From Deltaproteobacteria bacterium (lineage in GTDB: Bacteria; Desulfobacterota; Dissulfuribacteria; Dissulfuribacterales; UBA3076), in assembly GCA_027004715.1 (NCBI GenBank), contig JALTHG010000068.1, positions 1-56,967 of the forward strand: a stretch of DNA of 56,967 nucleotides, in the 5' to 3' direction. Numbering within the stretch: the stretch's first letter is position 1; each line of letters begins with the position of its first letter. Positions 8,172-20,425 of the stretch are shown here, piece by piece. The notes under the pieces were generated by a model. The model worked only from the letters and a program-made list of their open reading frames with translations, was not told where the DNA came from and did not search any database. The position numbers were made by a program, and so were the translations under genes.

Positions 8172-8354
8172 AATGTCTTTCAGACTGCCTTTTAAGAGCT
8201 ATATACTGCAAAACTATTTCTGCTCAACTATATGTCCATCTATGTATAAATGCATCAGGCCCTCTCTATTATATATAAATGCAAATCATTAACATTAACA
8301 ATATATTCAGTGACTCAATATTCCAGTCAATACAAAAAAATATAGATACTGGGA

Positions 8355-8382
8355 TTGACATCCAGCCTTATAGATTTATCAT
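8355..8382 (+). promoter_or_regulatory. Candidate sigma-70 promoter for the radical SAM / ORP-like operon
   Basis: TTGACA (8355-8360), 16-nt spacer, TATCAT (8377-8382), in an AT-rich divergent region about 180 nt upstream of the ATG at 8563. Confidence 0.4.
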
Positions 8383-8475
8383 ACTAAACTATAGATATGT
8401 ATCTTAATCGATTCTGATTTAAGATAACTGTAACTATACACTGATATAACAGAGACTGTCCTGGCTGGTGTATCA

Positions 8476-8503
8476 TAGCTGTTCACATCCCCGGCCAGCC
8501 GGC
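8476..8503 (+). repeat. GTAAC-arm repeat family: left arm plus GGCCAGC module (truncated)
   Basis: tagCTGTTCACATCCCCGGCCAGCcggc, in the 5' leader of the radical SAM gene. Confidence 0.7.
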
Positions 8504-8562
8504 AGAAGAGAGGTCATAGGGCCCCTGGTTGTGGATTGAGACCTCTTGAGGAATATTGAATT

Positions 8563-9543
8563 ATGACTGGAAGATATCTTTTTGGACCAGTGCCTTCCCG
8601 TCGCTTTGGAAGATCACTGGGTGTAGATCTGTCTATCTATAAGACATGTAGCCTGGACTGTATATTTTGTCAGTTGGGACGGACTACTAAAAAGACACTG
8701 GTAAGACGAGAATATGTACCTACAGATAGGGTAATTGCAGAACTCAGAGAATGGTTGGCAAGAGATGGCAGGGCAGATTATATTACCCTCTCTGGTTCTG
8801 GAGAACCGACGCTTCATTCGCATTTTGGGGATATACTGGAGTTTGTCCGTTCTAATACCACAATCCCTGCTGTGCTTTTGACCAATGGCACCATGCTCTA
8901 TCTCCCAGAGGTACGGGATGCGGCATCGCATGCAGATATAGTGAAGGTCTCTCTGAGTGCCTGGGATGAGACCTCATACTGTTGGGTGAACCGTCCCCAT
9001 CCACAGTTGCACTTTGATCAGCTAATCGAGGGACAAAAGGCCTTTCGTGCACAATTTAAGGGGAAATTATGGATGGAGGTATTCCTGGTCGCTGGTGTAA
9101 ACTCTATGCCCTCTGATGTCAGTAAGATTGCTGCCCTGGCAGAGGAGATCAGGCCAGATCGTATTCACTTAAATACAGTTATTCGACCGCCTGCAGAGGA
9201 ATTCGCCGTGGCCTTGCCTAAAGAACAGGTGGAGGCACTCACTCAGCTATTTCACCCAGTGGCAGAGGTCATTGGAGAATTTAAGGCAAAGTATCCAGAG
9301 CATATGGAGGTGAATCAGGAAACGATCTTTTCCATGCTGCAGCGAAGACCCTGTACAGCGAGACAGATTGCAGATACATTTGGTATGCATCTCAATGAGG
9401 TCTCAAAATACCTCGGAAATCTGATGCGTGGTGGGCAGATTCAGACAGAGCGAAGAGACAGTACTATATACTATGGAGTAGTGAAGACAGAGAATAGAGA
9501 TTATACATATACCTCTAGTACTCTAAGACAAAAAATTCATTAG
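8563..9543 (+). CDS. Radical SAM protein with C-terminal winged-helix-like domain
   Basis: CX3CX2C motif CSLDCIFC near the N-terminus, GSGEPTL SAM-binding block, and C-terminal LQRRPCTARQIADTFGMHLNEVSKYL HTH-like segment. Confidence 0.85.
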   Translation: MTGRYLFGPVPSRRFGRSLGVDLSIYKTCSLDCIFCQLGRTTKKTLVRREYVPTDRVIAELREWLARDGRADYITLSGSGEPTLHSHFGDILEFVRSNTTIPAVLLTNGTMLYLPEVRDAASHADIVKVSLSAWDETSYCWVNRPHPQLHFDQLIEGQKAFRAQFKGKLWMEVFLVAGVNSMPSDVSKIAALAEEIRPDRIHLNTVIRPPAEEFAVALPKEQVEALTQLFHPVAEVIGEFKAKYPEHMEVNQETIFSMLQRRPCTARQIADTFGMHLNEVSKYLGNLMRGGQIQTERRDSTIYYGVVKTENRDYTYTSSTLRQKIH

Positions 9544-9557
9544 GAGGCAAAAATATT

Positions 9558-10124
9558 ATGAAGATAGCAGTTACGTCTACAGGTCCTACACTTGATGATA
9601 TGGTAGAGGCACGTTTTGGACGATGTCCTTATTTCCTGATTATCGATCCAGATACCATGGAGTTTGAGGCCATTAACAATGCAAATATTGCTCTAGGTGG
9701 AGGAGCAGGGATACAATCTGCACAGCTTATGGCAAGCAAGGGCGTATCGGCAGTTTTGACTGGAAATTGCGGACCAAACGCCTTCCAGACCTTTGGGGCA
9801 ACCAACATTCAGGTAATTACTGGGGTAAGTGGGCCAGTGCGGCAGGCAGTTGAGCAGTATAAATCTGGCAAACTCTCCAGCAGTACTACTCCAAATGTCC
9901 AGAGCCATTTCGGCATGGGCGGAGGTGGCATGGGCATGGGCGGTTGCCGTGGCATGGGCATGGGCATGGGCAGAGGTATGAGATTTGTTACACCCAGTCA
10001 ATCTCAGCCTGGTCCTATGCCAGATAGCAGAGGAATTGAGTCTCTGAAGAGAGAGGCAGAGAGCCTGCGCAGCCAGCTCGAGTCCATCGAGGCCAGGATC
10101 AGGAATTTAGAAAAAAGTAGATAA
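9558..10124 (+). CDS. NifB/NifX-type (dinitrogenase FeMo-cofactor-binding fold, orange-protein-like) domain fused to a Gly/Met-rich DUF5320-like tail and coiled coil
   Basis: ARFGRCPYFLIID...GGGAGIQSAQ...TGNCGPNAF is the NifX/NifB-C fold. The tail MGGGGMGMGGCRGMGMGMGRGM is followed by heptad-like ESLKREAESLRSQLESIEARIRNLE. Confidence 0.8.
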   Translation: MKIAVTSTGPTLDDMVEARFGRCPYFLIIDPDTMEFEAINNANIALGGGAGIQSAQLMASKGVSAVLTGNCGPNAFQTFGATNIQVITGVSGPVRQAVEQYKSGKLSSSTTPNVQSHFGMGGGGMGMGGCRGMGMGMGRGMRFVTPSQSQPGPMPDSRGIESLKREAESLRSQLESIEARIRNLEKSR

Positions 10125-10146
10125 TTAGTAAAGAGAGGTTAGTATA

Positions 10147-11352
10147 ATGAAAAAGGTAGATCAAAAGACTCGGGAAGCCCAGTTAAAGCTACAGAACCAA
10201 GAGATTAAGGAGAGGCTCCATCACATAAAGAATAAGATTCTTGTCTTTAGCGGAAAGGGTGGAGTGGGAAAGAGCAGTGTGTCTGCCCATCTCGCTGTGG
10301 CCCTTGCCATGAGAGGCTATCAGGTCGGCCTCATGGACGTGGACCTCCATGGACCCAGTATCCCTCGTATACTAGGTCTGGAAGATAGCCCGCGTCCAGG
10401 TGGCCGGGGGGGCAAGATGTTGCCTGTCAAATATCTCCCCAATATGGAGGTGATGTCGATTGAGGTCCTCTTGGGAGACAAGGATGCAGCGACTATCTGG
10501 AGAGGACCCCTCAAGGCTGGGGTAATCAGACAGTTTATCTCAGATATTGACTGGATGGATCTTGACTACATGATCGTTGACTCTCCGCCTGGCACTGGGG
10601 ATGAACCCCTGACTGTGGCCCAGACCATCTCGGATGCCAAGGGAATAATTGTGACTACCCCTCAAGAGCTCTCACTGGCCGATGTCAGAAAGGCCATTAA
10701 TTTTTGTCGCAAGGTCAAGATGGAGATCCTGGGCATAGTTGAGAATATGAGCGGCCTCAAGTGTCCCTATTGTGGTAAGACCATCGAATTGTTCAAGCAA
10801 CATGGAGGAGAAATAACCGCAAAGAGGGAAGGCCTGAGGCTCCTGGCAAGCCTGCCTATAGAGTTAGAGGTGGTCTATAGCGAGGATGAGGGGACTATGA
10901 GCGCACTGCAGAACAGTCAGCTCCCATTCACCCAGGAATTTAACAAGATGGTGGACAAGATAGTGGAGTTGACGGCCCCTGAAAAGATCCCTGCCAGGGA
11001 GAAGCGTCCAAAGGCTATAAAAGTACTTGCTATACCTGTGTTGGACGGAAGACTCTCACCCCATTTTGGGCGCTGTGAGGAGTTTGCGTTTATCGAGACC
11101 CAGGATGGAAAGATAGTTAGGACAGAGATGCGTGCCTCTCCAGGCCATGAACCAGGTGTATTTCCTCAGTGGCTTTACGATCAGGGAGCAGATGTAGTGA
11201 TTGTGGGTGGAATGGGAGAGAATGCACAGAGTCTCTTGAAGGAGAGAGGGATAGAGGTCATTGTTGGTGCCCCAATGGATTCTCCTGAGTCCCTGGCAAG
11301 ACAATATCTCTCCAATACCCTGTCGACAGGTAATAATATATGTGACCACTAG
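10147..11352 (+). CDS. Mrp/NBP35 (ApbC)-type Fe-S cluster carrier ATPase fused to a C-terminal NifB/NifX-type domain
   Basis: Deviant Walker A GKGGVGKSS, CPYCG motif, and C-terminal LSPHFGRCEEFAFIE...GGMGENA NifX-like domain. Confidence 0.88.
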   Translation: MKKVDQKTREAQLKLQNQEIKERLHHIKNKILVFSGKGGVGKSSVSAHLAVALAMRGYQVGLMDVDLHGPSIPRILGLEDSPRPGGRGGKMLPVKYLPNMEVMSIEVLLGDKDAATIWRGPLKAGVIRQFISDIDWMDLDYMIVDSPPGTGDEPLTVAQTISDAKGIIVTTPQELSLADVRKAINFCRKVKMEILGIVENMSGLKCPYCGKTIELFKQHGGEITAKREGLRLLASLPIELEVVYSEDEGTMSALQNSQLPFTQEFNKMVDKIVELTAPEKIPAREKRPKAIKVLAIPVLDGRLSPHFGRCEEFAFIETQDGKIVRTEMRASPGHEPGVFPQWLYDQGADVVIVGGMGENAQSLLKERGIEVIVGAPMDSPESLARQYLSNTLSTGNNICDH

Positions 11353-11370
11353 CCCTGGGACTGATATATG

Positions 11371-11426
11371 GTGACCGTTCACATCCCCGAGACCCAGACA
11401 GTTCAATAGGGGGTGTGAACGGTTAC
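11371..11426. repeat. GTAAC-arm repeat family: short doublet (left arm, 20-nt loop, right arm)
   Basis: GTGACCGTTCACATCCCC...GGGGGTGTGAACGGTTAC, between the Mrp and MinD-type genes. Confidence 0.85.
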
Positions 11427-11442
11427 ACGAAAGGAGTAGATC

Positions 11443-12294
11443 ATGATTATCAGCGTAGCAAGTGGAAAGGGAGGTACAGGGAAGACGACTGTAGCCACAA
11501 ATTTGGCTCTCTCTCTTGGGCCTGATGTTGATGTCCAGGTACTGGATTGCGATGTAGAGGAGCCAAATTCCTCTCTCTTTATTCGACCCAGCATTGAAGA
11601 GGTCAAGACCATCACTACACCAGTACCAAAAGTAGATATGGAAAGATGTAGCCTCTGTGGAAAGTGTGGGGAGATATGCCAGTTTAAGGCCATTGTCGTG
11701 GTTGGCGAGAAGGTCTTGACATTCCCTGAACTCTGCCACAGTTGCGGTGGATGCATTGAGGTATGTCCTGAAGAGGCCATAAGCGAGACAGAGAGGGAAC
11801 TAGGCACGATCAAGAAGGGACATAGAAATGGGCTGGAATTCATCCAGGGAGAATTGAGGGTTGGAGAGGCCATGGCCCCGCCTATGATCAAAAGAGTGCG
11901 AGAATATACCCGACCTGAAAGCATAACTATAATCGATGCACCTCCAGGGACCTCGTGTCCGGTCATTGCCTCCATGAAGGGCGCAGACTTTGTGTTGTTA
12001 GTCACAGAACCGACGCCTTTTGGTCTGCACGACCTAAAATTGGCTCTAGGGGCCGTTAAGGTCTTGGGGATTCCATGTGGTTTGGTCATCAATCGTTCTG
12101 GAATAGGCAATAATGACGTAGAGAAATATGCAAGAGAGGAGGGTGTACCACTCTTGTTGGAGATCCCCCTTGATAGGCGGTTTGCAGAGGCCTATTCAAG
12201 AGGAGATATGATCGTAGAGCAGTTTCCAGACTGGAAAGAGAGGTTCAGAGATCTGTATAATAAGATCATAGAGCTCTCTTCTTCTGAGGATTGA
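11443..12294 (+). CDS. MinD/ParA-superfamily P-loop ATPase with inserted 2x[4Fe-4S] ferredoxin domain
   Basis: SGKGGTGKTT Walker A, and ferredoxin motifs CSLCGKCGEIC and CHSCGGCIEVCP. Confidence 0.88.
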   Translation: MIISVASGKGGTGKTTVATNLALSLGPDVDVQVLDCDVEEPNSSLFIRPSIEEVKTITTPVPKVDMERCSLCGKCGEICQFKAIVVVGEKVLTFPELCHSCGGCIEVCPEEAISETERELGTIKKGHRNGLEFIQGELRVGEAMAPPMIKRVREYTRPESITIIDAPPGTSCPVIASMKGADFVLLVTEPTPFGLHDLKLALGAVKVLGIPCGLVINRSGIGNNDVEKYAREEGVPLLLEIPLDRRFAEAYSRGDMIVEQFPDWKERFRDLYNKIIELSSSED

Positions 12295-12306
12295 GGAGGA
12301 TAAGAT

Positions 12307-12522
12307 ATGCCTATCTATGAATTTAGGTGTAAAAATTGTGGCAATGTCTTTGAATACCTATGCATCAGGAGTAAAGATAGAGATCAGGTGCACTGCCCTC
12401 AGTGCGGGTCTAAAGACACTGAAGCACTCCTGTCTACATTTTCTTCTATAAATTCTGGCAGTAACCTGAGAGGAAGCAGGAGTACATTGTCTTCATGTCC
12501 ATCTTCAGGTGGCTTTTCGTGA
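12307..12522 (+). CDS. FmdB-family zinc-ribbon protein
   Basis: MPIYEFRCKNCG...HCPQCGS is the canonical FmdB/CxxC_CxxC_SSSS N-terminus. AGGAGGA lies 7 nt upstream. Confidence 0.75.
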   Translation: MPIYEFRCKNCGNVFEYLCIRSKDRDQVHCPQCGSKDTEALLSTFSSINSGSNLRGSRSTLSSCPSSGGFS

Positions 12523-12660
12523 GCCTGATCCTGGCAGTTGGAAACTGCCTTGGGCATAACTTCTCAATAAGTTGCGGCAGGTCCTGCAACCGATCACTGG
12601 GTGCCAGGATGGGAGTCCCGACCTATTGAGTCAGGCATCTTTATTGAGAAAGGGAGTATT

Positions 12661-13521
12661 ATGAAGGAGATAGTTATCATAAGTGGCAAGGGCGGGTCAG
12701 GAAAGACCAGTATCCTTTCAGCATTTGCCTCACTGGCAGAAAATAAGGTCCTCTGTGATGCAGATGTGGATGCAGCAGACCTCCATCTCATTATGGATCC
12801 CCAGGTCAAGGAACGTCATGACTTTAAGTCTGGGCATACAGCCATCATCAATCAAGACAGGTGTGTACAGTGCGGTATGTGTCGTGATCTGTGTAAATGG
12901 GACGCCATCAGTGAGGATTTTGTGGTGGATTCCATAGACTGTGAAGGTTGCGGCGTCTGTTATTACTTCTGTCCTGAAAAGGCCATTGACTTTCCCCTGA
13001 ATACCTGTGGAGAATGGTACATTTCTGATACCCGTTTTGGGCCCATGGTCCATGCCAGGCTCTATATTGCAGAAGAGAACTCTGGCAAACTGGTGGCACT
13101 TATACGTGAGAGGGGCAAAAAGCTTGCTGAAGAGAAGGGCCTGGATCTGTTGCTTACAGATGGGCCTCCAGGTATAGGTTGCCCAGTCATTGCCTCACTT
13201 GGTGGGGCCTCGGCCGTCCTTATCGTGGCCGAGCCAACGGTCTCCGGCAGGCATGATATGGAACGTGTAGTAGACCTGGCCGAGTTTTTTAAGATACCTG
13301 CTATGGTATGCATCAATAAATTTGACCTCAATCCCGAGGAGGGTGAGGCCATAGAGGCCTTTTCGAGAGAGAGAAATGTGAGTGTGTTGGGAAGAATCCC
13401 TTTTGATCTTGGCTTTACTGAGGCCATGGTCCAGGGGAAGAACATCGTAGAGTTTGACAGCCACTCTAAGGGCTGTAAGGCAGTCCAAGATATATGGGCG
13501 AATCTGGCACAAAGTCTTTAA
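12661..13521 (+). CDS. MinD/ParA-superfamily P-loop ATPase with inserted 2x[4Fe-4S] ferredoxin domain (second paralog)
   Basis: SGKGGSGKTS Walker A, CVQCGMCRDLC and CEGCGVCYYFCP. Start moved to the ATG at 12661 (AAAGGGAG upstream) rather than the track ORF start at 12601. Confidence 0.88.
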   Translation: MKEIVIISGKGGSGKTSILSAFASLAENKVLCDADVDAADLHLIMDPQVKERHDFKSGHTAIINQDRCVQCGMCRDLCKWDAISEDFVVDSIDCEGCGVCYYFCPEKAIDFPLNTCGEWYISDTRFGPMVHARLYIAEENSGKLVALIRERGKKLAEEKGLDLLLTDGPPGIGCPVIASLGGASAVLIVAEPTVSGRHDMERVVDLAEFFKIPAMVCINKFDLNPEEGEAIEAFSRERNVSVLGRIPFDLGFTEAMVQGKNIVEFDSHSKGCKAVQDIWANLAQSL

Positions 13522-13537
13522 AAAGGAGGTAAATAAG

Positions 13538-13771
13538 ATGCCAAGAGGAGATGGAACTGGACCTATGGGCCAGGGACCTGGAACAGGCAGAGGAATGGGC
13601 GGAGGACGTGGAATGGGCGGAGGTGGTCGTGGCCGAGGTGGAGGTTTTGCTGCAGGCCCAGGGGGCTATTGTGTATGTCCTAACTGTGGCACAAGGGTAC
13701 CTCATCAATTGGGAGTGCCATGCTATCAGCAACAGTGCCCCAAGTGTGGAGCAGCCATGACTCGAGAATAG
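13538..13771 (+). CDS. DUF5320-family protein (Gly/Arg/Met-rich) with C-terminal zinc ribbon
   Basis: MPRGDGTGPMGQGPGTGRGMGGGRG N-terminus typical of DUF5320, with CPNCG...CPKCG. AAGGAGGT lies upstream of the ATG at 13538. Confidence 0.75.
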   Translation: MPRGDGTGPMGQGPGTGRGMGGGRGMGGGGRGRGGGFAAGPGGYCVCPNCGTRVPHQLGVPCYQQQCPKCGAAMTRE

Positions 13772-13789
13772 ACATAACCCAGGGAGCTG

Positions 13790-13946
13790 GTAACTGTCCA
13801 CGTCCCCCTGGTCAGGATAGCCTTTTTCAGGGTTTCAGGAGCAGTTGATGCATCAGGCACTCTGCCTATTAATTTGCACTGAAACCCTTTAAAGGGCCAC
13901 TGGCCTGCGACTAGACGGTTGTAACAGGAGAGATGTGGACGGTTAT
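13790..13946 (+). repeat. GTAAC-arm repeat family: long form with conserved core
   Basis: GTAACTGTCCACGTCCCC...CCTTTTTCAGGGTTTCAGGAGCAGTTGATGCATCAGGCACTCTGCCTATTAATTTGCACTGAAACCCTTTAAAGGGCCACTGGCC...AGATGTGGACGGTTAT. Confidence 0.85.
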
Positions 13947-13992
13947 GACATGGGTATCTGTAGGTGTAGATGAGTTCGTATGGGGTAGACAG

Positions 13993-14373
13993 ATGAGTGA
14001 GGATTATTACGCTACACTTGGTCTGAGTCCTGGGGTGTCCTCAGAAGAGATCAAAAAGGCCTATCGCAGGCTTGCAATGCAATATCACCCTGACAGGAAT
14101 GGAGGCAGTCTTGAGAGTGAGGAACGCCTGAAAAAGATCAATGAGGCCTATCAGGTCTTAGGAGATGAAGAAAAGAGGAGGTATTATGACCTCCAATATC
14201 AACAGCCCTTTAGAGACAATATATTTAAAGGTGATGCACCTTATGAGAGAGAAGTTGATGATCTGATTAGTGTCCTGTCCAGATTTTTTCAGGAGAGTTT
14301 TGATAGGAGAGGGACAGGATGCTGTAGAGGCAGGGGGTGTGGGTGTGGTAGATGGAAGAGAAGGTGTTTTTAA
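13993..14373 (+). CDS. J-domain (DnaJ-like) protein with Cys-rich C-terminal tail
   Basis: DYYATLGL...[17 protein letters not shown] (HPD motif) and tail [20 protein letters not shown]. The track ORF start at 13933 lies inside a repeat copy, so the ATG at 13993 is preferred. Confidence 0.75.
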
Positions 14374-14403
14374 GACTGGGCTTAATGGCATAGGAGGCAA
14401 TTT

Positions 14404-15165
14404 ATGAAGATATCTCTCTGTGGAAAGGGAGGGAGTGGCAAGAGTATCTTGACCACTTTATTGGCCAAACAGGCCGCATCTCGCGGTCTTCAGGTCCTTG
14501 TAGTAGATTCAGATGAGTCTAATTCCGGGCTCTTCAGGATGCTTGGCCTTGATGGACCTCCAGTCCCATTTATGGAACTCTTAGGGGGAAAGCAGAAGCT
14601 AAAGGAGAGGATGTCTCAAAAAAATGTACTCAGGACCGACGGGTTCCTCATAAGAGATATCCCCTCTCGATATCTGGTCAAGAGAGACAGTATTATGTTG
14701 GTCAGCATAGGGAAGATCCTTCAGGCCTTTGAGGGATGTGCCTGCCCTATGGGTGTATTGAGTCGGGAATTTCTAAAAAAGCTCTGTCTCAATAGTGATG
14801 AGATTGCATTTGTCGATATGGAGGCAGGAGTAGAGCACTTTGGTAGGGGGATTGATGAGGCCATAGACTATGTCTTCCTTGTAGTAGAACCCTCATTCGA
14901 GTCTTTGAGTGTGGCTGAAAAAATAAGAGGGCTTGCCTCTGGAATGGATAAGGCAGTCTATGCCATATTGAATAAGATAGATTCAGAAGAGACTGCCCGC
15001 AGATTGGGAGATGAAGTCAAGGCCAGGGGTCTGAAGGTCATTGGGACAGTTCCAATGGACCCTCTGATATTTGAGGCATGCCTGGAGGGCCGGGCCCTTG
15101 CCGAGGGAAAGGCATTCCATGCCGCTGGAAAGATCCTGGATAGTCTCCTTAAAGTACAAATTTGA
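14404..15165 (+). CDS. CooC-like (CO dehydrogenase maturation factor family) metal-binding P-loop ATPase
   Basis: MKISLCGKGGSGKS Walker A and a conserved CXC metal site (EGCACPMG), about 250 aa. Confidence 0.75.
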   Translation: MKISLCGKGGSGKSILTTLLAKQAASRGLQVLVVDSDESNSGLFRMLGLDGPPVPFMELLGGKQKLKERMSQKNVLRTDGFLIRDIPSRYLVKRDSIMLVSIGKILQAFEGCACPMGVLSREFLKKLCLNSDEIAFVDMEAGVEHFGRGIDEAIDYVFLVVEPSFESLSVAEKIRGLASGMDKAVYAILNKIDSEETARRLGDEVKARGLKVIGTVPMDPLIFEACLEGRALAEGKAFHAAGKILDSLLKVQI

Positions 15166-15182
15166 TATAGGGAGAATTTCCA

Positions 15183-16160
15183 TTGACAGACAGCTACTGC
15201 AGGGTTATCAATTATTTACGGCTTTCTGTTACTGACCGCTGTAATCTGAGATGTATATACTGTATGCCTGATAGGGCCCTTGACTTTATACCTCACAGTG
15301 AGGTCCTCACGTATGAAGAGATCCTTCGTATTGTCAGGCTCTGTATCCAACTGGGCATCCGTAAGGTCAGGCTTACAGGTGGAGAACCCTTGGTAAGAAA
15401 GGGCTTTATAGGATTTATTAACAGGCTCTGCCGCATAGAAGGGCTGAAGGAAGTCAGCCTGACTACTAATGGGGTATTACTCAGGGGACTTGCTGCTTAC
15501 ATCAGAGAGTGTGGCATCTCCAGAATCAACGTGAGTCTAGATTCCCTCAGGCCCGAGCGTTTTTTCTACATCACTGGCAGGGATTATTTTGCACGTGTAT
15601 GGGAAGGTCTTGAAGAGGCAGAAGGCCTTGGATTTAGTCCCATCAAGATCAATGTAGTAGTCATGAAGGGGATCAATGACGATGAGGTCTTGGATTTTGT
15701 CAATCTTGCCCTAAATACGTCCTATTGTGTCCGTTTTATTGAATTCATGCCTCTAGGTCAGAATGGGTGGACTCCAGAGAGATTTGTATCTATAGATGAG
15801 ATCTATCAACTTATTCAATCTAAATGGGATTTAATCCCTATAAAATCCGGTCCATATGATGGCCCTGCCCTAAGATTTAGAATTGGAGGGACTCAAGGAG
15901 AGATCGGACTGATCGGTGCCCTGAGCAACCCTTTCTGTCCCAGATGCAATAGATTACGTCTTACATCTGAAGGACATCTCAGAGGCTGTCTCTTTTCAGA
16001 TCAAGAGGTCGATCTCAAGACGCCATTGAGGCAGGGAAAAGGAGATGATTATATCCTTCGACTAATTGAATTTGCAATCAGAAACAAACCTAAAGATCAT
16101 GGGTTATTGGGATATGGCCCTCAAGGAAGTCTCCGTGAGATGTACAGTATTGGGGGTTAG
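15183..16160 (+). CDS. moaA: GTP 3',8-cyclase (molybdenum cofactor biosynthesis protein A)
   Basis: Radical SAM CNLRCIYC, GGEPL, and C-terminal auxiliary-cluster motif CPRCNRLRLTSEG. TTG start with AGGGAGA 8 nt upstream. Confidence 0.9.
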   Translation: MTDSYCRVINYLRLSVTDRCNLRCIYCMPDRALDFIPHSEVLTYEEILRIVRLCIQLGIRKVRLTGGEPLVRKGFIGFINRLCRIEGLKEVSLTTNGVLLRGLAAYIRECGISRINVSLDSLRPERFFYITGRDYFARVWEGLEEAEGLGFSPIKINVVVMKGINDDEVLDFVNLALNTSYCVRFIEFMPLGQNGWTPERFVSIDEIYQLIQSKWDLIPIKSGPYDGPALRFRIGGTQGEIGLIGALSNPFCPRCNRLRLTSEGHLRGCLFSDQEVDLKTPLRQGKGDDYILRLIEFAIRNKPKDHGLLGYGPQGSLREMYSIGG

Positions 16161-16199
16161 AGAAGAGTAACAAACTATTTAAAGAAAGGAGTGACTGAC

Positions 16200-17546
16200 A
16201 TGAAAAGCGATGTATTAATAATCGGTGGAAGTGCATCAGGTATTACAACTGCATTGACCGCTAAGGCCCATTATCCAGACAAGGAATTTCTTGTGGTTAG
16301 AAGGGAAAAAGAGGTCTTTATCCCCTGTGGTATTCCCTATATATTCGGTTCATTGGAAAACAGTGCTCAGGATGTCATCCCAGATCAGCTACTTACTGAT
16401 GCGGGTATAAAACTTATGCTCGATGAAATTTCTTCTATAGATTGTGATAAAAAGGTATGTAAGACAGCTAATAATGAGGAAATTAATTTTGAAAAGCTTG
16501 TCATTGCTACTGGATCTAGACCAGTAGTTCCAGGATGGCTAAAGGGGGCAGATCTTGAGAATGTATTTACTATACCAAAAGATAAGGAATATATCGATAA
16601 AGCTATAAGTACTCTAGAGAATGCACAAAAGATTGTGGTGATAGGTGGAGGCTTCATTGGCGTTGAGATGTCAGATGAATTGAATAAAAAGGGTAAAGAT
16701 GTAACTATTGTTGAAGTCTTACCTCACCTATTAGGTATAGTATTTGACGATGAAGTAACAGCTAAGGTAGAAGAGGTCCTCTCTTCTCGAGGTATACATA
16801 TAAAGACAGGCTCTGGCGTCAAAGAGATACTTGGTACAGATGGAAAGGTATCTGAAGTTGAGCTCCAAAGTGGAGAAAGGCTTGAAGCCGACGCAGTCAT
16901 TCTGTCTATGGGCTATAGACCAAATACAGAATTGGCCAAAGACTCAGGTATAGAGATAAATAAGTTTGGATTTATAGAAGTAGACGAATATATGAGAACA
17001 AGTAAACCAGATATAGTGGCAGTTGGTGACTGTGCTGAAAAGAGAGACTTTATTACCAGAAAGTTGAGCCGTGTTATGTTGGCCTCAGTTGCCTGTGCAG
17101 AGTCCAGGATTGCGGGCATAAATCTCTATAGATGGTCTAATCTAAAGACCTTCAGTGGTACGATCCCTGTATTCTCTACTGCCATTGGCAATAATGGTTT
17201 TGGAGCAGCAGGTATTACAGAGAACCTGGCCAGGAAAGAGGGACTTGATGTAGTCACTGCCATATTTCAGGGCATGGACAGGCATCCTGGAAAACTCAGT
17301 GACATGCATCCCCAGACTGTTAAGCTGATAGCTGCAAAGAAGACTGGCATGCTAGTGGGAGGAAGTGTCATGGGGGGCCTGAGCACAGGAGAACTGGTAA
17401 ACCTCATTGGGCTTGCTATCCAGAACAGGATGACCGTAAGTTCTATCTTTACAACCCAGATGGGAAGTCATCCTCTACTCACTGCATCTCCAGCGGCATA
17501 TCCTCTGATTAAGGCCGCTGAGATTGCCCTGGGAAAGATCGGATAG
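16200..17546 (+). CDS. Pyridine nucleotide-disulfide oxidoreductase (CoA-disulfide reductase / NADH oxidase-peroxidase type, single redox Cys)
   Basis: FAD fold VLIIGGSASG, single Cys in FIPCGIPY, and NAD fold VVIGGGFIGVE. The ATG at 16200 follows AAAGGAG. Confidence 0.85.
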   Translation: MKSDVLIIGGSASGITTALTAKAHYPDKEFLVVRREKEVFIPCGIPYIFGSLENSAQDVIPDQLLTDAGIKLMLDEISSIDCDKKVCKTANNEEINFEKLVIATGSRPVVPGWLKGADLENVFTIPKDKEYIDKAISTLENAQKIVVIGGGFIGVEMSDELNKKGKDVTIVEVLPHLLGIVFDDEVTAKVEEVLSSRGIHIKTGSGVKEILGTDGKVSEVELQSGERLEADAVILSMGYRPNTELAKDSGIEINKFGFIEVDEYMRTSKPDIVAVGDCAEKRDFITRKLSRVMLASVACAESRIAGINLYRWSNLKTFSGTIPVFSTAIGNNGFGAAGITENLARKEGLDVVTAIFQGMDRHPGKLSDMHPQTVKLIAAKKTGMLVGGSVMGGLSTGELVNLIGLAIQNRMTVSSIFTTQMGSHPLLTASPAAYPLIKAAEIALGKIG

Positions 17547-17553
17547 TTGTCAG

Positions 17554-17694
17554 GTAACTGTTCACATCCCCGGCCAGCAGTGGCCTCTCTCAGGGTTTCA
17601 GGAGCAGCTTGATGCACAAGACAGGCACTTTGCCCATTAATCCGACTGAAACCTTCAAAGGGCCAGGGCTGGACAGGAGGGTGTGAACGGTTGC
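17554..17694 (+). repeat. GTAAC-arm repeat family: long form with conserved core (best-preserved copy)
   Basis: GTAACTGTTCACATCCCCGGCCAGCAGTGGCC...CAGGGTTTCAGGAGCAGCTTGATGCACAAGACAGGCACTTTGCCCATTAATCCGACTGAAACCTTCAAAGGGCCAGGGCTGG...GGGTGTGAACGGTTGC. Confidence 0.9.
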
Positions 17695-17716
17695 CTTACA
17701 ATAGAGTTATAGGACC

Positions 17717-18439
17717 ATGAAAATCCTGGATGATCTGCTCTCTGTGTTGGACTTTGATGCCCAGGTAAGAGACATACGCCAGGGCATATTCCATACAGGG
17801 GTCTTGACTCGAAACTGTGGCCTGGCGGCAACTCTACCGCGAGATAGTCTGCGACAGGGTGCCCCGATGGGGAAAGAACCTGGTTTTTTGTTGGATCATA
17901 CCCCATTAGAACTTGCACATATGGCCTATTCTCATAGGCTTCTTGAAGCGGCTATTGGTATGGCTACTATCAATTCCCTCCTAGAAATAGATATGGATTC
18001 CTGTATTGAGCTAAATGCCGCAGAGCTCATTTTAGAGAGGGGTGCTGGCAAGAGGATATGCATTGTAGGGCACTTTCCATTCATCCCCAGGGTCCGTGAT
18101 CATTCAAAGGAGCTCTGGGTCATAGAAAAAAACCCAAGAGAGGGTGATCTTGGTGAATCTGAGGCAGAGATATTTATCCCTCAATCGGATGTTGTCGCCA
18201 TAACAGGCACTGCCCTGACGAATCATACACTTGAGCACCTGCTTAGCCTCTGTAGGCCAAATGCATATGTAATCTTGTTAGGTGATACAGTGCCTCTATC
18301 TCCTGTCCTCTTTGACTATGGTGTAGATGCCTTATCTGGCACGAAGGTAGTCTATCCTGATCTTGCCCTTCGATGTGTCAGCCAGGGGGCAAATTTTAGA
18401 CAGATTAAAGGCATAGAAAAACTGACCATGACGAAATAA
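17717..18439 (+). CDS. DUF4213/DUF364-family protein (putative heavy-metal chelation Rossmann-like domain)
   Basis: About 240 aa with GLAATL...AIGMATINSL N-domain and ICIVGHFPFI Rossmann-like C-domain, characteristic of this family. Confidence 0.7.
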   Translation: MKILDDLLSVLDFDAQVRDIRQGIFHTGVLTRNCGLAATLPRDSLRQGAPMGKEPGFLLDHTPLELAHMAYSHRLLEAAIGMATINSLLEIDMDSCIELNAAELILERGAGKRICIVGHFPFIPRVRDHSKELWVIEKNPREGDLGESEAEIFIPQSDVVAITGTALTNHTLEHLLSLCRPNAYVILLGDTVPLSPVLFDYGVDALSGTKVVYPDLALRCVSQGANFRQIKGIEKLTMTK

Positions 18440-18549
18440 AAATACCTATCTAGTCGGGTCGTAACTGTCTGCATCCCCTCCTGTTCGTTTACGTCACTGG
18501 TCAGGAAATGTGAACAGTTACGTCAGGTCTGATGGCTAGATAGGTATTT
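18440..18549. terminator. Compound hairpin between convergent genes (candidate bidirectional terminator)
   Basis: Outer perfect 14-bp stem AAATACCTATCTAG (18440-18453) / CTAGATAGGTATTT (18536-18549) encloses the repeat doublet at 18461-18521. T-rich sequence follows on both strands. Confidence 0.55.
18461..18521. repeat. GTAAC-arm repeat family: short doublet
   Basis: GTAACTGTCTGCATCCCC...GGAAATGTGAACAGTTAC, nested in a larger palindrome. Confidence 0.85.
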
Positions 18550-18558
18550 CTGTAGAGC

Positions 18559-18900
18559 TTATGTGCCCGAGGAGCCTGACTCAAGTTCCTGGATGCGTCT
18601 GTTTATGGCATCAAGTTGCTCTTTCATGGCATTGGCTTCATTCCTGAGCATAGTGGCTTCATCTTTGGCGCTTACGCTATAACCATAAGGATTCCCATAA
18701 TATGGTGCATAATATGGTGCTCCATACCATCCTGCTCTAAAAAATCTACCACGGAAGCCAAGGCCTCCCCTAAAGCCACGGCCCAGACCCAGGCCGAGCC
18801 TCGGCCAGCCATAGCTCACTCCAGCAGGGTTGCAATAACCTAGACCTCTTCCTGTCATGGGCCCTGCACCCATGGGCCCTGTTCCATCGAGTCCTGGCAT
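18559..18900 (-). CDS. DUF5320-family protein (Gly/Arg/Tyr-rich) with C-terminal coiled coil
   Basis: MPGLDGTGPMGAGPMTGRGLG N-terminus and C-terminal MLRNEANAMKEQLDAINRRIQELE. AAGGAGGTG lies upstream of the ATG at 18900, so the track ORF start at 18933 is rejected. Confidence 0.75.
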   Translation of the reverse strand: MPGLDGTGPMGAGPMTGRGLGYCNPAGVSYGWPRLGLGLGRGFRGGLGFRGRFFRAGWYGAPYYAPYYGNPYGYSVSAKDEATMLRNEANAMKEQLDAINRRIQELESGSSGT

Positions 18901-18926
18901 TATAATACACCTCCTTTTTTTTGATC

Positions 18927-19253
18927 TTACCACCAGCCACGGCGGCGACGTCCTCTTCTAGGTGGCATATCAAAATGGCCACCTTCAATCCTGAGTACCT
19001 TGCCCATAACCAGGGCGTCGGCGACAACTGCCCTTGCCTCTGCCAAGACCCTTCCAAAGGTCTGACGTGAGACATTCATCATCTTGGCCGCTGTCTTCTG
19101 ATCCAGACCCTGGAAATCACTCAACCTGATTGCTTCAAGACCTTCTATTGGGAGGACAACTTCATTCTTCCCCCAGGGGGGTACCCTGTCAGGGATAAAT
19201 GCCTCAACAATAGGGCGTCCTTGAACAAATCTCAGTTTTCTAGGCCTTGGCAT
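18927..19253 (-). CDS. DUF134 (UPF0251)-family predicted DNA-binding protein
   Basis: MPRPRKLRFV...LEAIRLSDFQGLDQKTAAKMMNVSRQTFGRVL is the canonical DUF134 HTH. GAGGG lies upstream of the ATG at 19253. Confidence 0.8.
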   Translation of the reverse strand: MPRPRKLRFVQGRPIVEAFIPDRVPPWGKNEVVLPIEGLEAIRLSDFQGLDQKTAAKMMNVSRQTFGRVLAEARAVVADALVMGKVLRIEGGHFDMPPRRGRRRRGWW

Positions 19254-19279
19254 CTCTACCCTCATTATGAGCCTGTGCC

Positions 19280-19308
19280 TATAAAATAGTCTCTTTTATA
19301 AAATAGTC
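19280..19308 (-). promoter_or_regulatory. Direct repeat pair in the DUF134 promoter region (candidate operator)
   Basis: TATAAAATAGTC occurs at 19280-19291 and again at 19297-19308 (17-bp period). On the minus strand it overlaps TTGACT-N16-TATTTT just upstream of the DUF134 start. Confidence 0.35.
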
Positions 19309-19330
19309 AAGAGTTTATTTTAAGCATAAG

Positions 19331-19456
19331 CTCAAATTTACCCCGGCCAGCGGTAGCCTTTTTCAGGGTCTCAGGAGCATAGCTTGTGCACAGGATCAGA
19401 CACTCTGCCTGTTAACCGCGCTGAAACCCTTCAAGATGCCACTCGTGAAGGGTTAC
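19331..19456 (+). repeat. GTAAC-arm repeat family: long form, degenerate arms
   Basis: tttaCCCCGGCCAGCGGTAGCCTTTTTCAGGGTCTCAGGAGCATAGCTTGTGCACAGGATCAGACACTCTGCCTGTTAACCGCGCTGAAACCCTTCAAG...GTGAAGGGTTAC. Confidence 0.8.
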
Positions 19457-19462
19457 GTCACA

Positions 19463-20425
19463 TTAAAGGAGGTCCCTATAACGGGCCAGGATTCCATCTA
19501 TCACCTTTTTACCTGAATTAAAGGCCGCCATGATAGTGCCCTTGCGAATTGCCAGGTCTCCTGCCAGGAAAAGTCTGGGTATGTTGGTCTCACCATATTC
19601 ATCAACAACAGGTCTGTCTTTATCAAACTTTATGCCTATCTTTTCAAGAAATACCTTGGGAGTCATGCCTCCAAGGCAATAAAATATGGCATCATATTCT
19701 ATATGCCTTCCGTCCTTAAAAATTACTACAACCTTATCGTCCTGTCTCTCCAGACCCTCTATATCTGTTGCCATCATCATATTAATAGCACCCTTTTCAG
19801 CATATTCTTTTATATTAGAGGCATTGATTTCATTCAGACGGAAGAATTCAGGACGTCTATAGGAGAGGCTTACTTCGTTATCTCTTGATAAGAGACATGC
19901 TGTCTCTGCAGCACTATTTCCACCTCCTACTACGAGTATTTTCTTTCCTTTTATTGGTGTATCAGGTAGGCTAAAATAGATATTTTGCTTTATTTCTTTT
20001 GGAATCGGATATCTTGGCTTGACCGGCCTTCCAAATATCCCTATAGCTATTACAAGCAGTGGGGCCTTGATCTCAAGCCCTCCTCCAGTAGATATATAGA
20101 AATCTTCTTTAGATACTCTTATCTTTTCTACGCCATTTTTATAGCGGATATCTATATCGTTTTCTTTTACGATATTTTTCATCCTCTCAAGAAAGGCCTC
20201 TTTACTCTCTGTATTGAAAGATAGTTTACCTATGGGTTCTAATTTGACTTTTAAGTGAACTGGATCTACGCGTTTTCCTGTGGGATACAGCCTTTCAATT
20301 GTAGCGCAGATATGATCTGTCTTTTCGAGGACTATGACTGGAGCGATGTTGGCCTCTTTTGCTTCAACAGCAGTAGAAATGCCAGCAGGACCAGCCCCTA
20401 TAATTGCTAATTTTGTCTGTTCCAT
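19463..20425 (-). CDS. FAD/NAD(P)-binding oxidoreductase (thioredoxin-reductase-like fold, no CxxC)
   Basis: LAIIGAGPAG and ILVVGGGNSAAE dinucleotide folds plus a C-terminal FLAGD motif. No redox-active CxxC seen. Confidence 0.8.
   Translation of the reverse strand: MEQTKLAIIGAGPAGISTAVEAKEANIAPVIVLEKTDHICATIERLYPTGKRVDPVHLKVKLEPIGKLSFNTESKEAFLERMKNIVKENDIDIRYKNGVEKIRVSKEDFYISTGGGLEIKAPLLVIAIGIFGRPVKPRYPIPKEIKQNIYFSLPDTPIKGKKILVVGGGNSAAETACLLSRDNEVSLSYRRPEFFRLNEINASNIKEYAEKGAINMMMATDIEGLERQDDKVVVIFKDGRHIEYDAIFYCLGGMTPKVFLEKIGIKFDKDRPVVDEYGETNIPRLFLAGDLAIRKGTIMAAFNSGKKVIDGILARYRDLL

Follow-up and report, generated by a model that had tools for sequence, protein, structure and literature searches.

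On sequence grounds, the gene cluster at positions 8563–19265 of the 57-kb window (the whole stretch of DNA analysed, 56,967 nucleotides) is a genuine orp locus of an uncultured Desulfobacterota related to sulfate reducers, in a "long form". Its core is an already described system, and the extended gene set is an addition to the known ORP cluster. A first-pass annotation had called the ensemble an undescribed system, which is too strong, as the ORP complex, the Fe-S carrier MrpORP and OrpR have been published (PMC6345978, PMC8359166). A literature search found no paper describing the extended gene set, and all 14 families occur together in no other locus among ~130 related Desulfobacterota loci. 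Accessory genes recurring beside orp are testable leads to the role of the ORP system.

Gene content of the locus

Fourteen genes were confirmed from the open reading frames at the positions and on the strands first annotated, twelve on the + strand (8563–18439) and two convergent on the − strand (18559–19265). Pfam and NCBIfam profiles, together with PDB sequence searches, bore out all of the earlier domain assignments; the start codons of several ORFs lie downstream of the first possible one.

g01, 8563..9543, +: Radical_SAM, CX3CX2C at C29/C33/C36, C-terminal wHTH (Pfam/NCBIfam)
g02, 9558..10124, +: ORP (Orp8) orthologue; Nitro_FeMo-Co (84 bits) and DUF5320 tail (31.8 bits)
g03, 10147..11352, +: MrpORP (Orp9); ParA/NUBPL and Nitro_FeMo-Co; NF041136, 505.9 bits
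g04, 11443..12294, +: MinD/CbiA ATPase, Orp3/Orp4 type, 2x[4Fe-4S] insert
g05, 12307..12522, +: FmdB-family zinc ribbon protein
g06, 12661..13521, +: second MinD/CbiA ATPase, Orp3/Orp4 type, 2x[4Fe-4S] insert
g07, 13538..13771, +: small protein, Gly/Arg-rich DUF5320 N-part, 6-Cys ribbon; Orp5 position
g08, 13993..14373 (probable start; longest ORF from 13933), +: DnaJ domain, HPD, C-terminal Cys/Gly/Arg tail
g09, 14404..15165, +: CooC-like SIMIBI ATPase; GKGGSGKS Walker A, CXC = CAC at residue 112
g10, 15183..16160, +: MoaA (GTP 3',8-cyclase), GG terminus; TIGR02666
g11, 16191..17546, +: single-Cys FAD/NAD(P)H reductase, CoADR/Nox/CoA-persulfide-reductase family
g12, 17717..18439, +: DUF4213 and DUF364
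g13, 18559..18900/18933 (likely start 18900), −: stand-alone full DUF5320, 90.8 bits
g14, 18927..19253/19265, −: DUF134 (UPF0251), predicted DNA-binding, 83 bits

Within g1–g7 and g8–g11 the intergenic gaps measure 12–30 bp except at repeat insertions, with g08, g09, g10 and g11 spaced 17–30 bp apart. Repeat-filled spacers split the locus into the blocks g1–g3, g4–g7, g8–g11, g12 and g14–g13.

The orp core and the cationic tails

Two matches identify the core as an orp locus of the D. vulgaris type, in agreement with the first-pass annotation: g03 exceeds the 450-bit cut-off of the curated MrpORP model, and the best solved-structure match of the g02 N-domain is the crystal structure of the D. 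gigas orange protein (2wfb, E 2.8e-21). The Mrp/NBP35 ATPase of g03 carries GKGGVGKS and CPYC motifs and its Di-Nase domain ends in CDH. In g02 the NifX fold continues into a cationic tail rich in Gly, Met and Arg and a coiled coil (DUF5320). Two CxxCxxCxxxC motifs apiece are present in g04 and g06, and the FmdB ribbon g05 has the same position in two related loci (L001 and L005). The DUF5320 N-part of g07 scores 24.7 bits, slightly below the cut-off of 27, and the protein is a probable Orp5-like, small Fe-S protein. MrpORP dimers hold a bridging [4Fe-4S] cluster that is transferred to the MinD-ferredoxin ATPases Orp3/Orp4, and the small protein Orp5 binds [2Fe-2S] (PMC6345978, PMC8359166). 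ORP binds an anionic metal-sulfide cluster, a Mo-Cu-S cluster, non-covalently.

Three DUF5320 copies are present as claimed, only two of them as stand-alone proteins (g07, g13) and the third as the tail of g02; a motif scan revealed no fourth copy. In g13, a cationic Gly/Arg/aromatic N-part precedes a coiled coil. The g02, g07 and g13 tails have a pI of 10.5–12, are composed of Gly/Arg/aromatic residues or Met, hold one Cys, and agree in composition and pI with the IssA tail as described in print (PMC5524996). In the same paper, mesophilic proteins with Gly-rich tails form an uncharacterised clade, "IssX".

g01 is an orphan radical SAM enzyme, with no match to the NifB family model and no conserved auxiliary-cluster ligands. 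Its C-terminal wHTH is conserved, the match itself (TrmB/ArsR/SdpR-like) being weak and below cut-offs. The top five Foldseek matches of the g01 model were all NifB structures, for a model of medium confidence (pLDDT 66) and with an E-value only ~tenfold better than for viperin/PFL-AE. Natural fusions join an Orp7-like domain to a radical SAM domain (P0241) and Nitro_FeMo-Co to radical SAM and wHTH (P0276). In one locus (L136), the orthologue of g01 (67% identity) shows translational coupling to a CoADR-type gene and converges on DUF134, apart from the orp core.

Accessory genes recur beside orp in other Desulfobacterota

The closest solved relative of g09 is CooC1 (3kje; E 7e-19, 72 bits, full-length alignment), g10 scores 365 bits against TIGR02666 with its cut-off of 284, the single active-site Cys of g11 lies within PCGIPY, and the Cys/Gly/Arg-rich tail of g08 is conserved. 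DUF134 (g14) shows 80–93% identity across Desulfobacterota.

Neighbourhoods were counted in 80 species-level loci around MrpORP and in a wider set of ~130 related loci, and the counts are inflated by shared ancestry, as all loci compared are from Desulfobacterota. In the 80 loci, core genes were represented by ORP with tail (62), the two MinD-ferredoxin ATPases (44 and 43), an Orp5-like gene (36) and OrpR (27). Accessory genes were found less often: the rSAM-wHTH gene adjoins orp in 12, DUF5320 occurs in 11, DnaJ in 7, DUF134 in 6, DUF364 in 5, a CoADR-like gene in 4 and MoaA in 3, with an estimated chance expectation of well under one occurrence for a single-copy gene in ~20 kb. None is universal, and their combinations are mosaic.

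Loci anchored on the CooC-like gene have DnaJ directly upstream in 6 cases and CooT directly downstream in 13 or more; MoaA or DUF364 comes next in at least 4, and orp core genes occur in at least 5. A block recurs in which DnaJ with a Cys/Arg tail is followed by the CooC-like ATPase, often with CooT, and then by MoaA or DUF364; in some loci the CooC-like gene stands at the MrpORP position. The locus L130 combines rSAM, MrpORP, two MinD-ferredoxin ATPases, DnaJ, CooT, MoaA, NifX, NifU, DUF5320 and a CoADR-like gene, and L096 combines DUF134/DUF5320, rSAM, ORP, two MinD-ferredoxin ATPases, a RACo-like reductase, a CooC-like gene and MoaA. Of the related loci, 31 have a NifU_N/IscU-like gene, and those of Desulfatiglans have genes for TusA/DsrE and rhodanese. 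Since the accessory genes recur beside orp elsewhere (~130 loci), their co-localisation is conserved, and the proposed tie of the extra partners to orp stands: they are recurrent orp neighbours and no passengers.

A connection with Mo/W or some other heterometal, also proposed at first pass, is plausible, given that MoaA, DUF364 and CooC-like/CooT genes recur beside orp, that DUF364 is tied to modABC in methanogens and that ORP carries a Mo-Cu-S cluster. A single heterometallic product, as in the first-pass annotation, is only a possibility.

Upstream region and regulation

In the nearest relatives, orpR (encoding a sigma54 redox sensor) and an Orp7-like gene lie between alr and the radical SAM gene; both are absent from the window, which is syntenic with contigs bearing orpR and Orp7 at ~81–84% nucleotide identity.

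Sigma70-like promoter, 8355..8382, +: TTGACA-16-TATCAT, 11/12 match; upstream of g01
Spacer, 8174..8537, strand not applicable: 364 bp in place of the 2.09-kb orpR and Orp7-like segment of the nearest relatives

The spacer holds a partial dispersed-repeat copy at 8475; the promoter aligns with L001 5144–5191 and is a homologue of the orpR promoter there. OrpR has been lost here, and the sigma70-like promoter, which is still in place, probably drives transcription. A sister-species MAG that has both ends of the locus in common with the window carries DUF134 together with two features that go with OrpR control, the sigma54 promoter and Orp7, and another close relative has orpR itself. DUF134 therefore appears to be an additional resident regulator and not the regulator of the locus, and the dedicated regulator of the first-pass annotation is doubtful.

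Proposed cluster assembly and rival explanations

Our best explanation, to which we give an even chance, is that the locus serves the ATP-driven assembly, holding and hand-over of metal-sulfur clusters, Fe-S based and possibly with a heterometal, under strongly reducing conditions. The Cys-bearing cationic tails of ORP (g02) and of the DUF5320 proteins g07 and g13 would hold anionic metal-sulfide, in parallel to the thioferrate-binding IssA tail. The radical SAM enzyme g01 might act on or with the species bound to the NifX fold, an architecture that is NifB-like since radical SAM domains are fused to NifX-fold domains in other organisms. The J-protein g08 may bring in Hsp70 for cluster release or transfer, like HscB, the CooC-like ATPase g09 (with CooT in relatives) could provide a thiophilic heterometal, and g11 reductant, or sulfide from persulfide. 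MoaA and DUF364 would either connect the system with the supply of Mo/W cofactors or be its clients, and DUF134 would be a DNA-binding regulator associated with the locus.

Several observations count against this assembly reading. CooC/CooT and MoaA are well known elsewhere, in CODH Ni insertion and Moco synthesis, and Orp7, fused to radical SAM domains elsewhere, is missing here. The mosaic make-up of the accessory set, the shared ancestry behind the counts, the medium confidence of the g01 model and its narrow lead for NifB, and the missing auxiliary-cluster ligands and NifB-family match of g01 weigh on the same side. The window holds no further Moco gene, cysteine desulfurase (IscS/SufS), IscU or client enzyme, which also speaks against the self-contained pathway first proposed.

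The main rival, which we consider rather unlikely, is a co-regulated "metallocofactor maturation island" whose separate factors are all needed only under anoxic reducing conditions and have no single product. The orp core would serve Fe-S and the CooC-like ATPase (with CooT) the maturation of Ni enzymes, CODH/ACS among them; MoaA and DUF364 would serve ordinary Mo/W cofactor synthesis, and the reductase general thiol/persulfide housekeeping. The full score of g10 as a housekeeping-type MoaA, the CODH maturase CooC1 as closest solved relative of g09 and the known role of CooT as a Ni chaperone are in line with it, as are the mosaic accessory set and sub-modules that stand separate from orp (L134, L136). 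Formate dehydrogenases of the Mo/W type and CODH/ACS are employed by many Desulfobacterota, and in L134 the DUF134, DUF5320 and CoADR-like genes adjoin an FDH-Hdr cluster. However, in all inspected loci CooC-like/CooT genes lie beside DnaJ, MoaA and orp genes, not cooS/acs, and in inspected CooC-like loci no other moa/moe genes ever stand beside MoaA. The tight spacing of g08–g11 and the return of the block in varied gene orders across lineages argue in the same direction.

Clearly improbable is Fe-S storage or buffering of the IssA type, in which tailed ORP and DUF5320 proteins would keep Fe and S in the form of thioferrate-like polymers, loaded and unloaded by the ATPases. It would account for the composition and pI of the three tails, for the Gly-rich IssX clade and for sulfur-trafficking genes in related loci, but the likeness to IssA is one to its published description, D. 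gigas ORP is tail-less and binds a discrete Mo-Cu cluster, and the rSAM, MoaA, CooC-like and J-protein genes are left unexplained.

A MinD-like positioning or cell-division system, with metal clusters merely regulating the ATPases, is very improbable. The cell-shape defect of an orpR mutant and the polar localisation of MrpORP in the literature are suggestive, as are four SIMIBI/MinD-class ATPases in the locus, yet MinC/MinE/FtsZ partners are absent, every conserved neighbour encodes a metal, sulfur or redox protein, and cluster transfer by MrpORP takes place in vitro. That unrelated operons came to lie beside an ordinary orp cluster by chance, as the repeat-filled spacers and the housekeeping genes flanking the locus in the window might suggest, is hardly credible, as every accessory family is found near orp genes again in independent species and differing orders.

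Comparison with known systems

Like HscB of the ISC system (HscB/HscA/IscU), g08 is a dedicated small J-protein in an Fe-S-related operon, with the NifU_N/IscU-like genes of related loci as a further parallel; it falls outside the HscB family, to which it has only weak matches, and a Cys/Arg tail replaces the HscB C-domain, and no dedicated Hsp70 is encoded. With CooC/CooT, which insert Ni into the CODH C-cluster (PMC6006190), g09 has in common its deviant Walker A, CXC motif and full-length CooC1 alignment, and its relatives are paired with CooT, whereas here no CODH gene is nearby, J-protein and MoaA flank g09, and identity to CooC1 is at family level. IssA of Pyrococcus furiosus likewise consists of a NifX fold (IPR003731) followed by an unstructured cationic Gly-rich single-Cys tail (PMC5524996), in an anaerobic host under sulfidic conditions; unlike IssA, g02 has a Met/Gly/Arg-rich tail with a coiled-coil end, a globular domain closest to ORP among solved structures, and a place inside an ATPase-rich operon.

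FeMo-co assembly (NifB/NifX/NafY/NifH) resembles the locus in the genetic coupling of radical SAM to NifX-fold domains (fused in homologues), in NifX-fold carriers, in SIMIBI ATPases with bridging or attached [4Fe-4S], in its Mo connection and in the NifB matches of the g01 model. Differences are that the locus has no NifEN/NifDK-type scaffold or nitrogenase genes, that g01 has no K-cluster ligands, and that the fused NifX domain is N-terminal in homologues, the reverse of the NifB order.

The closest comparison is with the orp operons of D. vulgaris Hildenborough and D. alaskensis G20 (Fievet 2011; Pardoux 2019, PMC6345978; Fievet 2021, PMC8359166). Two-domain MrpORP, NifX-fold ORP, two MinD ATPases with 2x[4Fe-4S], a small Cys-rich protein at the Orp5 position and an anaerobic Desulfobacterota host are common to both, and the nearest relatives retain OrpR and a sigma54 promoter. 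Unlike the two divergent operons described there, the present locus is a single co-directional array, without OrpR and Orp7 and with a sigma70-like promoter left; g03 has no N-terminal Cys motif as in the Hildenborough MrpORP, and g02 bears a DUF5320-type cationic tail. To the known orp set it adds eight families: rSAM-wHTH, FmdB ribbon, J-protein, CooC-like ATPase, MoaA, CoADR-like reductase, DUF364 and DUF134/DUF5320.

The orp core belongs to a known system

ORF listing and profile searches recovered every gene that the first-pass annotation had named, in the order and orientation it gave.

8563-18439, + strand: twelve genes in one direction, encoding a radical SAM (rSAM) enzyme with wHTH (g01), an orange protein (ORP) with tail (g02), MrpORP (g03), a MinD-type ferredoxin-motif ATPase (MinD-Fd, g04), FmdB (g05), a second MinD-Fd (g06, likely start 12661), an Orp5-like protein (g07, likely start 13538), a J-protein (g08, likely start 13993), a CooC-like ATPase (g09), MoaA (g10), a CoADR-like reductase (g11) and DUF364 (g12)
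18559-19265, - strand: DUF5320 (g13, likely start 18900) and DUF134 (g14) genes, convergent on the twelve

Of the three DUF5320 proteins counted earlier, only g07 and g13 are stand-alone; the third is the tail that ends the NifX-fold protein g02 at its C-terminus. No further copy in the window was detected by a motif scan in six frames.

g03 scores 505.9 bits on NF041136 (cut-off 450), the curated NCBIfam equivalog model for "iron-sulfur cluster carrier protein MrpORP", and consists of two domains, an Mrp/NBP35 P-loop with a deviant Walker A (GKGGVGKS) and a CPYC motif, and a Di-Nase domain ending in CDH. The best PDB match of g02 residues 2-113 is the Desulfovibrio gigas orange protein (2wfb, E 2.8e-21), which identifies g02 as the ORP (Orp8) orthologue. 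g04 and g06 are paralogous MinD-type ATPases with two CxxCxxCxxxC ([4Fe-4S] ferredoxin) motifs each and correspond to Orp3/Orp4. Right after these two, in the Orp5 position, lies the small six-cysteine protein g07, which by position and composition looks like Orp5; its homologues occur in 36 of 80 comparison loci. MrpORP binds a bridging [4Fe-4S] cluster and hands it to Orp3/Orp4 and to apo-aconitase, the Fe-S redox sensor OrpR turns on the orp operons at low redox potential only, and the physiological role of the ORP complex is still unclear in published work (PMC6345978, PMC8359166). The D. alaskensis Orp5 counterpart is reported to bind [2Fe-2S], and ORP to accept S2MoS2-M-S2MoS2 clusters in vitro, with M being Fe, Co, Ni, Cu or Cd. 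The MrpORP model, the ORP structure match, the Orp3/Orp4 motifs and this published work together identify the core as a known system. The locus had been proposed as a candidate for an undescribed system; this does not hold for the core, as g03 passes the MrpORP model and g02 matches 2wfb, whereas the proposed linkage of the extra partners to the orp genes stands.

Accessory genes form a conserved yet mosaic guild around the orp core

Gene neighborhoods were compared in 80 species-representative loci anchored on MrpORP (relatives at 51-84% identity, all Desulfobacterota), whose six-frame ORFs were assigned to window proteins by best phmmer score. Core genes are frequent in these loci (ORP with tail 62, the two MinD-Fd ATPases 44 and 43, Orp5-like 36, OrpR 27), and accessory genes recur in smaller numbers: rSAM in 12, DUF5320 in 11, the J-protein in 7, DUF134 in 6, DUF364 in 5, the CoADR-like reductase in 4, MoaA in 3 and the CooC-like ATPase in one. 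By our estimate, a single-copy gene would be expected by chance in windows of ~20 kb well under once. All counts refer to Desulfobacterota loci drawn from the best 80-120 matches listed, which are close relatives and not phylogenetically independent. Unbiased clustering of all ORFs revealed further recurrent neighbors, namely Orp7-like (40 loci) and NifU_N/IscU-like proteins (31 loci), as well as thioredoxin, DUF1638, a zinc-ribbon/wHTH protein, an ArsP_2 permease, ARMT1-like and CGGC-domain proteins, with TusA/DsrE and rhodaneses additionally present in Desulfatiglans loci.

In metagenome loci anchored on g09, relatives of at least 55% identity are nearly always found in the same gene company, whereas more distant ones (~46% identity) have unrelated neighbors. 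The J-protein gene directly precedes the CooC-like gene in six of these loci, and cooT directly follows it in at least 13. At least four have MoaA or DUF364 as the next gene, and in at least five the contig also carries orp core genes. The following comparison loci resemble the window especially closely.

L130: thioredoxin, ORP with tail, rSAM, MrpORP, two MinD-Fd, DnaJ, CooT, MoaA, DUF1638, NifX, NifU, DUF5320, ArsP_2, CoADR-like
L009/L010 (a sulfate reducer of an ethane-oxidising consortium): content similar to L130
L096: DUF5320/DUF134 divergent from rSAM, ORP, two MinD-Fd and Orp5-like; then a RACo-like ATP-dependent reductase, ferredoxin, methyltransferase, zinc ribbon, CooC-like and MoaA

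Parts of the accessory set are also found apart from the core. In one MAG (L136), a CoADR-type gene and an overlapping g01 orthologue (67% identity) run convergently to DUF134, and that MAG has its orp core on another contig. In another locus (L134, 10001-17161), DUF134, a DUF5320-like gene, DUF1847, an unknown gene and a CoADR-like gene stand beside a Mo/W formate dehydrogenase-Hdr cluster, a placement that may point to a client of the guild's Mo-linked genes. The Mo/W formate-dehydrogenase-like gene of this cluster appears to be interrupted by a stop codon that may encode selenocysteine, with FlpD and HdrA-like genes alongside. The full complement of 14 families was found in none of ~130 other loci, and literature text searches returned no published description of the extended gene set. 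The neighborhood counts from both anchors bear out the co-localization of the extra partners with orp genes in other genomes, and the accessory families are a conserved yet mosaic guild around the orp core.

Layout, dispersed repeats and the regulatory end of the locus

The locus is embedded between housekeeping genes, with glutamyl-tRNA reductase, ccsA, a siroheme synthase domain, tatC, tatA/B and alr upstream, and a YpdA-like flavoprotein, gatB, an IF-2B-family gene, a GAF protein and mreB downstream. Genes are separated by 12-30 bp within g01-g03, g04-g05, g06-g07 and g08-g11. The wider spacers (g03/g04, g07/g08, g11/g12, g12/g13 and that between g14 and the next gene, g15) are occupied by copies of a dispersed palindromic repeat and are not necessarily promoters. 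No convincing terminator was found within g01-g12, and an Rfam scan of 8000-21500 (E<=1) for riboswitches or other known RNAs, aimed at the GC-rich leader and spacers, gave no match. Several further genes of the window were recorded.

19463-20425, - strand: YpdA-like flavoprotein (putative bacillithiol-disulfide-reductase family), directly upstream of DUF134-DUF5320 on the same strand
20489-20674, + strand: 61-aa Cys-rich ORF without family match, between the locus and gatB
21172-21456, + strand: 94-aa HTH protein, sigma70 region-4-like with weak DUF134 similarity, between the locus and gatB, kept in L132/L133
35955-36606, + strand: DUF3842 gene overlapping a CooT gene (Ni-chaperone family, 84 bits), 17 kb from the locus
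39122-39781, + strand: response-regulator receiver domain after a weak J-domain-like segment (26 bits, under cut-off), an unusual pairing

The YpdA-like gene may be co-transcribed with DUF134-DUF5320; it is syntenic in the sister MAG (L132, L133), and its proximity to orp genes is not conserved elsewhere. The CooT gene of the window adjoins a PocR-domain gene and an HdrD-like CCG/Fer4 gene, whereas in relatives CooT directly follows the CooC-like gene within the extended orp locus.

The repeat is intergenic. The 57 kb contain 16 copies of its terminal motif GTAACTGTTCACATCCCC, compared with 0.07 expected, and eight of these are located in spacers of the orp locus. Its core of ~110 nt is conserved, present in five copies, folds as a long hairpin and has no Rfam match. 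The element, which looks REP/MITE-like, is common to the sister MAG (L005, L132, L133) and absent from L001/L002. Conserved spacer sequence had been considered as an RNA element and proved to be this dispersed repeat, the Rfam scan being empty.

Repeat sites (position in the window): 5963, 8475, 11371/11409, 13790-13950, 17554-17700, 18461/18504, 19340-19446, 26897, 29681, 34801-34908, 35674-35868, 43538, 49047-49165, 50639

The nearest relatives are two contigs (L001/L002) and a sister-species MAG, GCA_027004315.1 (contigs L005 and L132), syntenic on both sides of the locus with ~81-84% nucleotide identity. In L001/L002, the interval from alr to the rSAM gene contains orpR, whose product has PAS, sigma54-activator and HTH_8 domains, and, preceded by a sigma54-type promoter, a gene for an Orp7-like NifX-fold protein of 122 aa. 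Orp7 and the sigma54 promoter are also present in L005, a contig that begins downstream of the expected orpR site. The same interval measures only 364 bp in the window (8174-8537; counterpart in L001 5096-7185). The relatives' 122-aa Orp7, present in L001, L002 and L005, was unmatched by tblastn in the whole 57-kb window, which likewise contains no OrpR homologue, and no sigma54 consensus was found near the locus. The sigma70-like promoter of orpR is retained at 8355-8382, where it agrees with the consensus at 11 of 12 positions; it is now directed at the rSAM gene g01, which lies ~180 bp downstream. Since the 8174-8537 junction holds a partial repeat copy, an assembly artefact is possible: the absence of orpR and Orp7 may mark a natural orp variant that lacks its regulator, or may result from assembly collapse at the repeat. 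A natural variant would suggest that the system is able to run without its redox sensor.

Two explanations of this gap were rejected. The missing gene is not the orange protein itself, as g02 is the ORP orthologue and the absent gene is the Orp7-like paralogue. Replacement of OrpR by DUF134 fails as a rule, because in the sister MAG a single locus has Orp7 and the sigma54 promoter at one end (L005) and DUF134 at the other (L132). OrpR and DUF134 occur together in none of the 80 species loci (27 with OrpR, 6 with DUF134; one-sided p ~0.08, own calculation).

The radical SAM enzyme is linked to NifX-fold proteins

The family of g01 is large and unnamed, comprising 1022 clusters (50% identity, E<=1e-30); g01 itself is 70-75% identical across Desulfobacterota. 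It has one CX3CX2C cluster site (C29/C33/C36) and a highly conserved wHTH; among 24 homologues just four cysteines are invariant, three of them forming the SAM cluster, and the K-cluster Cys/His ligands of NifB are missing as a conserved set. g01 does not match the NifB family model of NCBIfam. A close solved rSAM relative was sought by sequence search of solved structures, which gave E>=0.01 only. The five best Foldseek matches of the AlphaFold model, itself of medium confidence (pLDDT 66), are NifB structures (E 7e-7 to 6e-6), NifB scoring only modestly better than viperin and PFL-activase, which follow closely along with lipoyl synthase. Homologous proteins include a fusion of an Orp7-like domain to a g01-type rSAM (P0241) and one of a Nitro_FeMo-Co domain to rSAM and wHTH (P0276), and g01 constantly adjoins NifX-fold genes. 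These fusions and this adjacency argue that g01 may act on or with NifX-fold-bound species, following a NifB-like logic. Members of the g01-type family are also fused to a class I methyltransferase, a Maf domain, an HD domain or a ZIP-transporter fragment (P0268, P0346, P0390, P0306); a methyltransferase gene is also present in loci L003 and L096.

Cationic tails, chaperones and reductases

The g02 tail (~75-83 aa, pI 10.7) contains 15 Gly, 9 Arg, 8 Met and 1 Cys. Together with the N-terminal parts of g07 and g13 it is Gly/Arg-rich with Met or aromatics (pI 10.5-12), and a single Cys is found in each of the cationic parts of g02 and g13. In composition these parts agree with what has been published on the IssA tail. 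The J-protein g08 has an intact HPD and a C-terminal motif of two Cys in Gly/Arg context that is conserved across 12 homologues, which would suit a dedicated co-chaperone analogous to HscB.

g09 is a SIMIBI ATPase with a deviant Walker A (GKGGSGKS) and a CXC motif (CAC112) that matches CooC1 (3kje) over its full length (E 7e-19), and its relatives pair with CooT, a Ni-binding protein. No CODH gene was detected in the window or in a tally of the families recurring near g09-type genes, a count of recurrent families rather than a CODH-specific search. In L101 the CooC-like ATPase directly follows rSAM and ORP, the usual MrpORP position, and L089, L096 and L101 all have a CooC-like ATPase and no MrpORP on the contig; this suggests that the two SIMIBI ATPases may be interchangeable.

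g10 is assigned to MoaA (TIGR02666, 365.4 bits, cut-off 284), with CNLRC...C and CPRC...C motifs and a SIGG terminus, and g11 to the single-Cys CoADR/Nox/CoA-persulfide reductase family. The place of g11 is taken in other loci by non-homologous reductases (OYE-PNDR, RACo-like, thioredoxin), suggesting that the conserved requirement is a reducing or sulfide-generating step. In Methanococcus, DUF364 shows genetic linkage to modABC and co-fitness with nifH, and one member is a SAM-derivative cyclase; DUF364 and MoaA give the locus a recurring Mo/W flavor. Neither client enzymes nor further Moco or Ni genes were found elsewhere in the window.

A proposed long form of the orp system and its alternatives

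We favor, at about even odds, the reading of the locus as a long form of the orp system: a machinery driven by ATP that would assemble, store and deliver metal-sulfur clusters when conditions are reducing. As shown for orthologues, scaffold and carrier roles would fall to MrpORP and the MinD-ferredoxin ATPases; the NifX-fold and DUF5320 proteins could hold an anionic cluster, and the rSAM enzyme, J-protein, CooC-like ATPase, reductase and Mo-related genes might contribute accessory steps. The main alternative, which we consider less likely, is that the neighbors serve the maturation of Fe-S, Ni and Mo/W enzymes as separate factors and share no more than their regulation. The roles of MoaA and CooC/CooT established elsewhere and the mosaic nature of the accessory shell are in line with it, whereas the absence of CODH, acs and other moa genes beside MoaA and CooC/CooT, the conservation of the DnaJ-CooC/CooT-MoaA block and the tight gene spacing are not. 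An IssA-like storage role, a role in cell division and chance juxtaposition rank below both the long-form machinery and separate maturation factors.

A more far-reaching proposal, which we consider improbable, sees the extended ORP set as a previously unrecognised cofactor-biosynthesis pathway: in strict anaerobes, a NifB-like rSAM enzyme would act on clusters held by NifX-fold carriers, after which a client enzyme would receive a complex heterometallic sulfide cluster, built by SIMIBI ATPases together with a J-protein dedicated to the pathway, a metal donor of the CooC/CooT type and a Mo/W link.

The orange protein was reportedly found in 2000 and the orp operons are said to have been described in 2011; since its discovery the ORP complex has been without a defined biochemical role. 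A specific partner set that travels with the orp core across many Desulfobacterota offers a handle on function: the rSAM enzyme (NifX-fused elsewhere), the Cys/Arg-tail J-protein, CooC-like and CooT chaperones, MoaA, DUF364, CoADR-type reductases, IscU-like scaffolds and DUF134/DUF5320. It makes concrete the questions of which metal is handled, whether Hsp70 is involved, whether the rSAM enzyme changes a cluster once it is bound, and whether Mo/W or Ni enzymes require the system. It also provides a first functional context for DUF5320, DUF134, the rSAM-wHTH family and part of DUF364.

Comparison with known systems

The HFGRCE motif of g03 equals the published CXHFGHCE motif of MrpORP apart from the first Cys. 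In both g01 and NifB an rSAM core is linked to a NifX fold, whereas the auxiliary-cluster ligands of NifB are absent from g01. g09 keeps the CXC site of the Ni chaperone CooC1. IssA combines an IPR003731 domain with an unstructured cationic Gly-rich tail containing one Cys, proposed to wrap anionic thioferrate (PMC5524996); judged by composition and this published description, g02 resembles it in both its NifX-fold IPR003731 domain and its cationic, Gly-rich, one-Cys tail.
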